From: a virus
Virus record (IMG/VR): IMGVR_UViG_3300033153_006411
Coordinates: 19,135 to 83,134 of that record
Reading direction: 5' to 3' (one strand)
DNA: 64,000 nt
Part shown: one piece after another, positions 42,745 to 44,973 of the stretch
Position numbering within the stretch: the first letter of the stretch is position 1
Layout of the letters: each line of letters starts with the position of its first letter
Position numbers and translations under genes: made by a program
Notes under the pieces: model-generated
The model's database searches: none
Told to the model about the DNA's origin: nothing
Seen by the model: the letters and a program-made list of their open reading frames with translations, nothing else

Positions 42745-42773
42745 TTGACAGTTATTTTTAAGTGTGATACGTT
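42745..42773 (+). promoter_or_regulatory. promoter upstream of the guide array
   Basis: TTGACA-17-TACGTT with an extended TG, 15 nt before array unit 1. Confidence 0.6.
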
Positions 42774-42788
42774 TAAGCCTATGAATCA

Positions 42789-43223
42789 TGATGTGGGTGG
42801 AAGACCAGCCCGATACCGTCGGTTGACCTTTCAATTGCAGTCACCGCCCGCATCAACTTATTACGGTAGCTTGGAAGACCGATGGCGCACAGTCGTTTAG
42901 ACCCTTCGATCAATGTCACCAAGCCGCCAATTTATCAGAGGTAGTTGGAAGACCTGAAAATTTTTGTCGCGTGACCCTCTCGTGAATGTCACCAACTACC
43001 TCAACTTATTACGATGCGTGCGAAAGACCTCGTAAACCAAGTTGTATGACCAATGGCAAATAGTCATCGCTTGCATCAATTTATTACGGTAGCTCGGAAG
43101 ACCAGTGTTGTAGTGTCGAATGACCTCTTCAAGATCGTCACCGAGCTATCAACTTATTAAGGTAGTTGGAAGACCCTATTGGTGTAGTCAAATGACCGGA
43201 TACGTTTAGTCGCCGACTACCTT
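42789..43223 (+). repeat. TIGR-like stem-loop guide-RNA array 1 (6 units, two 11-nt variable spacers each)
   Basis: AAGACC at 42801, 42875, 42949, 43024, 43098 and 43170; each unit is stem-AAGACC-N11-GTY-N4/5-GACC-N11-GTC-stem', with AA(C/T)TTAT linkers. Confidence 0.9.
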
Positions 43224-43299
43224 TACCAAATCGGCACGTGCTGATAAGCCGGTGGACTAATCCACCATCATATTGTTCATTGGGAACAGGAGTATGAAG

Positions 43300-43899
43300 A
43301 TGGAAAACAATACAATCACGACCGTCAATGATCTCATCCGCATCGCGGATGATAATCATCCCACAGACACCAATGCCGCTGTAGCTGCTGTCATCAAAGC
43401 GATGAAGAAACACAAGCAAAAAGATGACATGCAGGAGTTGCTTATCTCCGCAGGAATCAAGTTGCTTCTGAACGGCATTCGTTCCGAGAACAAATTCAAA
43501 CCCTCACCTGTTGACGGGGTCACCACATTCGAGAGCCATAAAAACAAGTCCGACACCAAAGGCCACAGCACCATCCGCCGTGCCACTCTTAAAACCACAG
43601 AACAGCGTGAAGGTACACGTAATGACATCATCGAGACCATACTCGATGAGGTTTATGGCTCCAACGGATACCGCATGAGCATCGGAAATGCAACCAAGCC
43701 GGTACTCCGCCACTGGGCTAAAATCGAAGGCAAGCAGGCGATTGGTCATACCCGCAACTATGATTTGTTCACTGCCATCGCAGATAGACTGCCCGATGAC
43801 ACCACCAAGGTTGTTGAGTCACTGGACGCTGACGACGTACTGTCTATCAAGTGTAAGACTCATGCAGTCGCCAAGGGTGAAACTCATGCAGCCGCGTAG
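43300..43899 (+). CDS. uncharacterised protein coupled to the Nop-like protein (candidate accessory/effector)
   Basis: AGGAG RBS 7 nt before ATG 43300; overlaps the start of the next gene; lies inside the array-flanked cassette. Confidence 0.7.
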   Translation: MENNTITTVNDLIRIADDNHPTDTNAAVAAVIKAMKKHKQKDDMQELLISAGIKLLLNGIRSENKFKPSPVDGVTTFESHKNKSDTKGHSTIRRATLKTTEQREGTRNDIIETILDEVYGSNGYRMSIGNATKPVLRHWAKIEGKQAIGHTRNYDLFTAIADRLPDDTTKVVESLDADDVLSIKCKTHAVAKGETHAAA

Positions 43900-44683
43900 C
43901 CAAACGGTGGAGACGCTTAAGAAGATGTGTCACTTTCGACGTGTCCATCTTCGACAGCGCAACGCTCTTGTCCTTTGTATTCAAGGCTTGATACGTTCAG
44001 AACTGGGCTTTCGATCCATCGGTCCAAATGATGAAACCGCCACGGAAAAGAAAGCACGGGAAAAGGTGAACAAGGAAGCCAAGACTCGTGGTGATAGAAT
44101 TATTTCATCATTGAATGGTAAGAAGCTCGCCAAACCACTAGTCGATATCGACCAGAGCATTTATGAGTATATGCTCATCAACTGCAAAGGAATACTCGAT
44201 GGTATCGATATCATGAATTCTGACCTGAAGTCTAAGGACAAGGCCATCGAGAAGAAAGCCAAAGAGTTGCCAGAGTGTGAATGGTGGACTAGCCATAAGG
44301 GTCTGTCAGCTAAAGGTCTTGGTTTGCTAACAGGTGACGCTGGTGATATCGCCCGCTTCGACAAGGAGTCGCAACTATGGAAGCGCATGGGTATGGCAGT
44401 TATCGATGGTAAGCGTCAACGACGTGTGGCTGGCAATGCTGCGAAGGCAATCGAGCATGGATACAACTCCGACAATCGCGCCACCATGTTCACCATCGTG
44501 TCCAGTCTCAACATGGAACGCAACAAGGAATGCTACGCTGACCATCCGTGGTTCAACCTAGCTCGTGATTACAAGGAACGTAAACTGGCTGAAGGTGATA
44601 GACCATGCATTGCCGAAGCACGCGCCAACCGTAGAATGGGAAAGCGAATACTCCGTGATCTCTACTTGCAGGTACATGCATGA
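43886..44683 (+). CDS. Nop-domain / IS110 C-terminal-like RNA-binding protein with no nuclease domain (TasA-like)
   Basis: coiled-coil start RRVHLRQRNAL, then SHKGLSAKGLGLLTGDAGDIARFDKESQLWKRMGMAV, matching the IS110 Transposase_20/Nop pattern; no RuvC DEDD domain and no catalytic SG loop; probable start ATG 43886. Confidence 0.8.
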   Translation: MQPRSQTVETLKKMCHFRRVHLRQRNALVLCIQGLIRSELGFRSIGPNDETATEKKAREKVNKEAKTRGDRIISSLNGKKLAKPLVDIDQSIYEYMLINCKGILDGIDIMNSDLKSKDKAIEKKAKELPECEWWTSHKGLSAKGLGLLTGDAGDIARFDKESQLWKRMGMAVIDGKRQRRVAGNAAKAIEHGYNSDNRATMFTIVSSLNMERNKECYADHPWFNLARDYKERKLAEGDRPCIAEARANRRMGKRILRDLYLQVHA

Positions 44684-44690
44684 AGTAACC

Positions 44691-44973
44691 TGATGCGAGA
44701 GGAAGACCTATCTCGACTAGTCGTATGACCGTCCAGCCGCCGTCACCTCTCGCGTCAATTTATTCCGGTAGCACGGAAGACCAATCGATAAATGTCGAAT
44801 GACCTTGTGAACTTTGTCGCCGAGCTACCAATTTACCCGATGACTTGGAAGACCCGTAGAGCATAGTCGAATGACCACAGTTCGCCAGTCCCAAGTCATC
44901 AACTTATTTCGGTAGCTCGAAAGACCTTATGAGGCGAGTCAAATGACCCATACTGAGCAGTCATCGAGCTACC
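44691..44973 (+). repeat. TIGR-like stem-loop guide-RNA array 2 (4 units)
   Basis: AAGACC at 44703, 44777, 44849 and 44921, with the same grammar and 11+11-nt spacers. Confidence 0.9.

Follow-up and report, generated by a model that had tools for sequence, protein, structure and literature searches.

Among the described TIGR-Tas systems, those closest to the locus reported here are of the stem-loop TIGR-TasA type, known from PlTasA of a Peromyscus leucopus gut contig (Faure et al. 2025; PMC12045711), from BlTasA and MbTasA (Xu et al. 2026 preprint, 10.64898/2026.09.09.750476) and from a cryo-electron microscopy study of PlTasA (Guan et al. 2026 preprint, 10.64898/2026.08.11.744272). As described in these sources, transcripts of stem-loop arrays are cut to yield single hairpin units (PMC12045711), with unit boundaries often at a CUU at the stem base (10.64898/2026.09.09.750476); one tigRNA is bound per Tas dimer and its guides pair with opposite strands (PMC12045711; 10.64898/2026.08.11.744272); and TasA binds its target and represses transcription reversibly (10.64898/2026.09.09.750476). 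Arrays on both sides of tas, spacers of 8-12 nt and sub-arrays are also in print (PMC12045711; 10.64898/2026.09.09.750476). The subject of this report is a locus at 42745-44975 of a 64,000-nt stretch of viral DNA (positions 19,135 to 83,134 of IMG/VR record IMGVR_UViG_3300033153_006411; the whole stretch is called the window hereafter). Judged from its sequence, it is very probably (probability about 0.86) a stem-loop TIGR-Tas system of the nuclease-free TasA type, belonging to a large phage of hydrothermal-vent sediments.

Compared by description only, the locus resembles PlTasA, BlTasA and MbTasA in encoding a solo coiled-coil plus Nop protein without a nuclease and in its phage origin. It also shares with them tandem hairpins in each of which box C and box D enclose two short guides, stems that are variable yet complementary, and sub-arrays on both sides of tas; a CUU-like linker motif and, as predicted from the protein's length, the lack of a C-terminal Y/H processing loop may be further common features. 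It departs from them in that the positions of the box C adenine and the box D uridine are relaxed, so that 11 nt look variable, in that box C and box D pair over a longer stretch, a 3-bp GAC:GUC clamp that closes each guide at either end, and in an orphan 199-aa gene coupled upstream of tasA. The dual-repeat nucleases TaTasR (9MTY) and SpTasH (9W04 and others) have in common with it the coiled-coil/C-terminal domain region, an aromatic residue aligned with Y238 of TaTasR and dual guides whose C:G closing pairs enclose 12 nt, whereas the locus is without RuvC or HNH, without a C-terminal extension, and carries hairpin units of 72-75 nt rather than 36-nt dual-repeat units.

Arrays of dual-guide units flank two overlapping genes

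Ten guide units, all on the + strand, are present in 42745-44975, six upstream and four downstream of the two genes (Table 1). Each consists of a stem, AAGACC, 11 variable nt, GTY-N4-5-GACC, another 11 variable nt, GTC and the closing arm of the stem. Units were located with the regular expression AAGACC-N11-GTY-N3-6-GACC-N11-GTC, whose matches start at 42801, 42875, 42949, 43024, 43098 and 43170 in the upstream array (42801-43211) and at 44703, 44777, 44849 and 44921 in the downstream array (44703-44962), giving a repeat period of 72-75 nt. The motif with a fixed loop has nine matches, against 0.00 expected in 100 dinucleotide-preserving shuffles, and the tenth unit has a 5-nt loop. At the stem bases the linkers read CAACTT in 5/10 units and CAATTT in 4/10, and every one of the 20 variable 11-mers is different. 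With the same expression no further unit was found on the - strand or elsewhere in the window, and a looser expression returned zero units outside the locus across the whole 83,134-nt record. Tandem Repeats Finder did not pick up the arrays, an Rfam scan of 41500-46000 reported two tRNAs and nothing else, and blastn against a phage collection gave no match. An earlier note on this DNA had described six plus four units of this period, each with two 11-nt variable segments, had listed 20 distinct spacers and had placed two overlapping genes between the arrays; units, spacers and genes were all recovered as described.

Four DNA runs, each of a different study, have contigs that carry the stretch; three of these runs are labelled hydrothermal vent and the other sediment. 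Of the 28 matching pieces, all except one are at least 99% alike, and among the pieces listed one 34-base X1 fragment differs (by 4 letters). Near-identical DNA in four runs indicates that the sequence is real and is silent on its transcription.

The protein between the arrays matches Tas proteins past their nuclease domains

Among NCBIfam models, the 265-aa product of tasA matches best NF052498 TIGR_Tas_endo ('TIGR-Tas system RNA-guided endonuclease'; E 2.5e-13, 50.5 bits), followed by IS110 (E 7.9e-7), the latter at profile positions 114-300 of 343 only, that is, after the DEDD domain. When the single protein was compared with all Protein Data Bank (PDB) sequences, the best match was 9mty_A (E 2.8e-6; residues 118-212 to chain 158-248), an entry named as TaTasR by Xu et al. 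(10.64898/2026.09.09.750476). In this alignment F202 of TasA falls on Y238 of TaTasR, described as the aromatic residue at the DNA-unwinding junction (Guan et al.; 10.64898/2026.08.11.744272). A profile of 60 family members raised the match to 9mty_A to E 2.9e-25 (chain 141-297, past the RuvC domain) and also matched TasH (E 3.5e-9; chain 71-281, past the HNH domain). Two PHROG families annotated 'transposase' were matched (better E 2e-8), and Pfam Transposase_20 (PF02371) matches 10/60 family members. The N-terminus of TasA aligns with the first helix of the family, and its end lies 6 residues past the RDL motif, whereas TaTasR runs 34 residues beyond the aligned end; with so short an end after the last conserved motif, TasA is not expected to accommodate the Y/H processing loop that dual-repeat Tas proteins have.

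By these comparisons the protein is a member of the Tas family; Pfam found no HNH, RuvC or PF01548 domain in it, and it is predicted to be nuclease-free. The earlier note had called it a nuclease-less Nop/IS110-like protein and had proposed comparing it with TasA/TasR, Nop5 and IS621; the profile matches to TasR, TasH and IS110 agree with that description, TasR and TasH being matched only past their nuclease domains, over the coiled-coil and Nop part. The family is large: searched with an 8-sequence alignment, 1.84 billion representatives yielded 3,221 relatives at E<=1e-3, of which 1,158 reach E<=1e-30, and its atlas neighbours are viral. The ratio of nonsynonymous to synonymous substitution rates (dN/dS) of tasA is 0.175 against L002, a metagenome contig of 3.9 kb with a 94% identical TasA. 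As to the start codon, a second in-frame ATG, at window 43862 and 8 codons before the tasA start, has no Shine-Dalgarno sequence, and 43886 has AAGGGTG upstream; gene callers chose the 43862-type start for the close homologues P0001 and P0002 (273 aa).

The units share one predicted, covarying fold

Folded singly, the units are predicted to take one shape: the outer stem (9-12 bp) is followed by a small AA/A internal loop and the 3-bp GAC:GUC clamp, inside which two unpaired 11-nt segments are separated by a GUC-N4-GAC mini-hairpin. With no structure supplied, RNAalifold returned the same outer stem, the GAC:GUC clamp and the GUC:GAC mini-hairpin, left both N11 segments unpaired and reported both-sided changes at four stem pairs. 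Over the first 10 stem positions of the 10 units in the window, 97/100 cells are paired, and the mean contiguous arm pairing is 8.9 for cognate arms versus 3.2 for 90 non-cognate combinations. Among 31 units of three phages, the 310 stem cells comprise 274 Watson-Crick, 19 G-U, 10 A-C and 7 other combinations, so that 293/310 are standard pairs, with several pair types per position, and GAC:GUC is present at both ends in 31/31 units. Pairs were counted by an anchored script rather than with a covariance model, because MAFFT misregistered the 5' arms of some units. In relatives 27-32% identical, 79 box pairs are GGC:GCC, 8 are GAC:GTC and 1 is a wobble, which shows that the middle box pair covaries.

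The spacer pairs are flanked by variable yet complementary arms without edge repeats, as in the stem-loop class. The RNA strand is likely the + strand, because it is the strand of the genes, because G-U cells outnumber A-C cells and because the published CCA...YG motif is found in relatives on this strand only. Tas profile matches, covarying stems and array anatomy together support the TIGR-Tas-like interpretation with dual-spacer stem-loop units that the earlier note had given.

Related arrays combine conserved stems with unrelated guides

The context of L002 is the same as that of the window (two tRNA-Leu genes, promoter, array, partner gene, tasA and second array), and it carries 6 + 9 = 15 units against the window's 10. 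Five L002 units match window units, and the remaining ones carry unrelated guides. In four of the five shared units 20-21/22 guide positions are alike; in the fifth 14/22 are, with a 1-nt shift of the 9-nt core in one segment. At the first unit after tasA (window 44703-44744 versus L002:3190-3231), stems are identical at 19/20 positions and guides at 4/22. A second pair (window 44849-44890 versus L002:3266-3307) has 20/20 stem and 4/22 guide positions identical. Such same-stem units with unrelated guide pairs occur both between phages and within one array, and the stems fall into a few recurring families. With a synonymous divergence (dS) of the genes of 0.19-0.25 between the window and L002, conserved stems with unrelated guides point to guide replacement, not drift.

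A more distant relative, L003 (53% identical), has at least 8 units with the same boxes and other guides. The relatives 27-32% identical have units of the form stem / GGCC / N11 / GCC / loop 4-6 / GGCC / N11 / GCC / stem; one of them, L038, has 13 units, on both sides of tas. TasA relatives with 2-3 units of the GGCC-A-N9-T-GCC type were also seen in the cultured alphaproteobacteria Mesorhizobium mediterraneum USDA 3392 (L113) and Zhengella sp. ZM62 (L114). Of the relatives in cellular genome assemblies, 13/16 are in what we take to be Alphaproteobacteria.

Promoter, leader and partner gene

The promoter that the earlier note had seen ahead of the upstream units is a candidate one (Table 1): a consensus promoter scan did not call it, its -10 matching 3/6 positions, but both hexamers and the TG are conserved in L002 (TTGAC and TGnTACGTT are kept while the bases between and around them diverge). 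In 42400-45500 the scan made a single call, where 3.4 would arise by chance, at a weak promoter-like site in the 3' end of tasA (Table 1). The segment 42655-42735, flanked by tRNA-Leu(gag) and the array promoter, shows 3 differences in ~90 columns against L002, a conservation far above that of the adjacent promoter spacer, and contains the inverted repeat TTCACTG..CAGTGAA; it may be a tRNA promoter, a terminator or a regulatory site. The leader that joins the upstream array to the partner gene agrees with that of L002 at 96% of positions, versus 91-94% at the nucleotide level for the two genes.

Judged by the features of its sequence, the partner is a real gene, because its dN/dS against L002 is 0.24 (purifying selection). 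It has its own AGGAG 7 nt upstream of its start, and its stop overlaps the start of tasA. Among 5.8 billion proteins its product has a cluster of its own and just one other, 87% identical, and it has nothing significant in Pfam, PHROG, NCBIfam, PADLOC or the PDB. The likeness to the C-terminal part of ParA is insignificant (NCBIfam E 0.03, PDB E 1.3) and no ParB likeness was found; the Atlas model is poor (predicted local distance difference test score 0.47), with no TM-score > 0.37. Comparison of the partner with the N-terminal extensions of 154 family members showed no similarity. In L003 an open reading frame (ORF) also ends across the tas start, with a tail faintly similar to the partner, and L038-type relatives have no gene in its place.

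Searches for targets and transcripts

The earlier note had proposed searching for paired spacers in genomes, and such matches proved no commoner than in controls or by chance in the record itself, in related loci and in sequence collections. For the window units at 11+11 nt, the best matches in the 83-kb record have 4-6/22 mismatches, as against 3-7 for partner-swapped and 3-6 for wrong-geometry controls. With 29 units of three phages and <=3 mismatches, 611,727 bases (record plus loci) gave 0 opposite-strand matches in either order and 1 in same-strand controls. When 9+9 cores of 30 units were searched with <=2 mismatches, the counts were at chance level: 2 for A followed by the reverse complement of B, 7 for the reverse complement of A followed by B, 3 for A and B, 2 for both reverse complements and 3 for shuffled partners. 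One core match, within an ORF at window 5457, reaches 17/18; its order is not the one predicted by the published geometry.

Five patterns typed from the units shared with L002 were searched in larger collections, with 0, 0 and 0 matches in viral_contigs and 0 and 1 in genome_contigs (596 Gb); these required positions 1 and 11 to match, which was later judged too strict, and an 18-nt search of such collections would drown in chance matches. The single match, of the L002 variant of unit 2 with a 1-nt gap, is at L103:4044-4066 in Thiothrix eikelboomii ATCC 49788, inside a P-loop ORF between metA-like and sucA-like genes; it was taken as chance, ~0.4 being expected in 596 Gb. No self-target in the canonical order with <=3 mismatches was found in prophage-bearing Zhengella and Mesorhizobium contigs. 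Natural targets are described as hard to find at this guide length (PMC12045711; 10.64898/2026.09.09.750476).

Guide length and alternative readings

The variable segments are 11 nt long, and each most likely holds a central 9-nt guide, so that the earlier note's ~22-nt site would probably be one of ~18 bp. This follows from the edge bases of relatives, from faster change at the edges and from the 9 nt per guide that are paired in solved stem-loop complexes (10.64898/2026.09.09.750476; 10.64898/2026.08.11.744272). In the relatives 27-32% identical, position 1 is A in 55/88 spacers and position 11 is T or C in 85/88 and never G, which allows them to be read as CCA-N9-YG, the published box C, 9-nt spacer and box D (10.64898/2026.09.09.750476); positions 1 and 11 of the window's segments coincide with the box C A and box D U of these relatives. 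In orthologous units of the window and L002, changes affect 4/18 edge cells versus 2/81 core cells (Fisher p 0.009). A genuine TIGR-TasA whose relaxed boxes have changed the rules, with all 11 (or 10) nt pairing, a site of 20-22 bp and the standing of a real variant subtype, would fit the composition of the window's sub-clade, where position 1 is free (any of the four bases) and 54/60 spacers have A or T and 6 have C at position 11, rather than the relatives' T or C. Also in its favour are the TIGRFinder stem-loop seeds (CNA for box C, YG for box D, spacers of 8-10; 10.64898/2026.09.09.750476), which would pass over most of the units and accommodate only some, and the 8-12-nt spacers that Faure et al. 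state for stem-loop arrays (PMC12045711). We nevertheless hold it unlikely, for the 12 nt between the C:G closing pairs, the same in either reading, equal the canonical C-A-N9-U, position 11 is G in 0 of the 60 spacers, the edges evolve faster than the core, and CsTasR has 10-nt spacers of which 9 are paired (10.64898/2026.09.09.750476).

That the units direct the protein to RNA, in the manner of box C/D small RNAs, for binding or modification of phage or host RNAs such as the phage tRNAs, is improbable: the Nop domain is indeed common to Tas and box C/D ribonucleoproteins (PMC12045711), the phage has 12 tRNAs and a tmRNA and the DNA target searches came back empty, but no fibrillarin-like or other modifying enzyme lies beside the locus, the boxes sit on plain helices without K-turn-type flanks, TasR is described as inactive on RNA substrates (PMC12045711) and TasA as binding and repressing DNA (10.64898/2026.09.09.750476). 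If the repeats instead acted as DNA, as iteron- or centromere-like sites for both proteins in partition or replication control, their stem arms would hardly be expected to covary while the sequence drifts, with 19 G-U versus 10 A-C cells, nor would their variable segments differ in every unit, unlike binding sites, nor would the relatives' canonical CCA-N9-YG be confined to the tas strand; the very weak ParA likeness of the partner is not significant, and even with published ParB-like partners of TasA (PMC12045711) on its side this explanation is very improbable. A decayed or domesticated IS110-type element, its transposase remnant accompanied by relics of bridge RNA, would account for the PHROG 'transposase', NCBIfam IS110 and Transposase_20 matches. 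It is scarcely credible in view of an alignment that begins at profile position 114 with the DEDD domain absent, of the far better scores of the Tas model and of solved Tas structures, of ten structurally conserved tandem units and a dN/dS unlike those of relics, and of the single bridge RNA and lack of arrays in IS110 as described in PMC12045711.

Several findings weigh against the assignment to stem-loop TIGR-TasA itself. Pfam gave no significant family for the 265-aa protein; the TIGR_Tas_endo score falls short of the curated cut-off, which is 100. Alignment, length and missing Pfam domains are the basis for the predicted coiled-coil/Nop fold and the predicted absence of a nuclease. The conserved adenine of box C, which stacks on protein in solved complexes (10.64898/2026.08.11.744272), is not kept in the window's sub-clade. 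The 83,134-nt record has a CheckV completeness of 22%. The target searches in the 83-kb record, in 612 kb of related loci and with five collection patterns gave nothing beyond chance, and none of the runs listed as carrying the stretch is an RNA run.

Proposed mode of action

Beyond family membership and RNA anatomy, the mechanism of this stem-loop TIGR-TasA is inferred from published relatives. The arrays would be transcribed from the promoter at 42745, the downstream array by read-through or from a start inside tasA, and the transcript would be cut in the CAAYTT linkers at the stem bases to give units of ~65-70 nt. A TasA dimer would hold each unit, the two GAC:GUC clamps presenting two single-stranded guides for pairing at an adjoining DNA site, one guide to each strand; the effective guide would be the central 9 nt of a segment. 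On one strand of the target, guide A should then be followed by guide B in reverse complement, as deduced from the 8-nt 3' overhangs left by TasR and from the position of the junction aromatic (PMC12045711; 10.64898/2026.08.11.744272). The nuclease-free complex may thereby block transcription or replication of its target, be it a host, rival-element or phage gene. The 199-aa partner, conserved in the sub-clade, would be translationally coupled to tasA.

Features and neighbourhood of the locus

Table 1. Features of the locus in window coordinates (tigRNA units as predicted)
Feature	Position	Strand	Description
Candidate array promoter	42745..42773	+	-35 TTGACA (42745-42750), 17-nt spacer, extended -10 TG-n-TACGTT (42765-42773)
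tigRNA unit 1	42789..42855	+	Stem, box, 11 nt, GTC-loop-GACC, 11 nt, box, stem
tigRNA unit 2	42863..42930	+	5-nt central loop; near-identical unit in L002
tigRNA unit 3	42937..43003	+	
tigRNA unit 4	43012..43078	+	First box D is the variant GTT, pairing kept as G-U
tigRNA unit 5	43086..43152	+	
tigRNA unit 6	43158..43224	+	Last of upstream array; near-identical unit in L002
Leader	43225..43299	+	Array to partner gene; 6-bp hairpin GGTGGA-loop-TCCACC, then AGGAG
Partner gene	43300..43899	+	199 aa, orphan; stop overlaps tasA start by 14 nt
tasA	43886..44683	+	265 aa; coiled-coil plus Nop/C-terminal domain, without nuclease domain (by sequence)
Promoter-like site	44610..44637	+	In tasA 3' end, TTGCCG-16-TAGAAT; possible start for downstream array; weak
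tigRNA unit 7	44691..44757	+	Syntenic L002 unit with stem 19/20 alike, guides unrelated (4/22)
tigRNA unit 8	44765..44831	+	Related unit in upstream array of L002
tigRNA unit 9	44837..44903	+	Without 3' bulge; L002 orthologue differs only at position 1 of both segments
tigRNA unit 10	44909..44975	+	L002 orthologue has compensatory stem change and a difference at segment A position 11

Genes in the neighbourhood encode an HNH protein, a glutaredoxin, an HD hydrolase and unknowns. The HD_4 phosphohydrolase gene (window 44977-45420, - strand; Pfam E 1e-11, PHROG 990 E 7e-30) converges on the downstream array, and no terminator-like site was found between unit 10 and this gene. Besides 12 tRNAs, the window contains a permuted tmRNA gene at 18472-18673 (+), scoring 101 bits with Rfam RF04321 tmRNA_permuted against a gathering threshold of 47; the best clan model, beta_tmRNA, gave 65.6 bits, below its gathering threshold of 84, and ARAGORN was silent. 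The permuted tmRNA may hint at the host lineage.

Discussion

The locus is a stem-loop TIGR-TasA of a kind already published and opens no new category. Of the features for which the earlier note had suggested an undescribed subtype, two-sided arrays and spacers of 8-12 nt are in the literature and so define no new subtype; what is unusual about the locus is confined to the relaxed box positions and the partner gene. What is particular to it are the relaxed box C adenine and box D uridine, the 3-bp clamps, which are common to a wider clade, the orphan partner, and the conserved stems with unrelated guides in a 94% identical relative. TIGRSafari or supplementary tables may already list the contig or its sub-clade.

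In having a second gene in the tasA operon and arrays upstream, downstream or between genes, the locus resembles the TasA-TasParB operons (PMC12045711); its partner has no detectable ParB similarity, unlike theirs, and the cases described there have dual-repeat arrays. IS110 elements with their bridge RNA share with it a C-terminal RNA-binding domain and differ from it by their DEDD domain and by one two-loop bridge RNA in place of guide arrays, and the locus shows no sign of mobility. By parallel with the ParB-like proteins, the partner could be an accessory subunit or effector of TasA in this sub-clade, and the arrays could evolve by wholesale replacement of guide pairs within conserved stem scaffolds; taken together, this is a tentative and rather doubtful proposal.

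The locus is useful for open TIGR questions, namely guide acquisition, targets and the partners of TasA. Its naturally relaxed box C adenine and box D uridine positions and the coupled orphan gene provide material for study, and the Mesorhizobium and Zhengella isolates are tractable hosts for finding natural targets. Seeding on CNA-N9-YG, as in TIGRFinder, may miss such arrays, so that stem-loop TIGR arrays may be under-counted. The window, L002 and L003 offer closely related arrays in which shared scaffolds carry different guides. The mechanism by which TIGR spacers are acquired is listed as open in the TIGR literature, and block replacement of guides, if true, would point to a dedicated mechanism of spacer exchange or acquisition.

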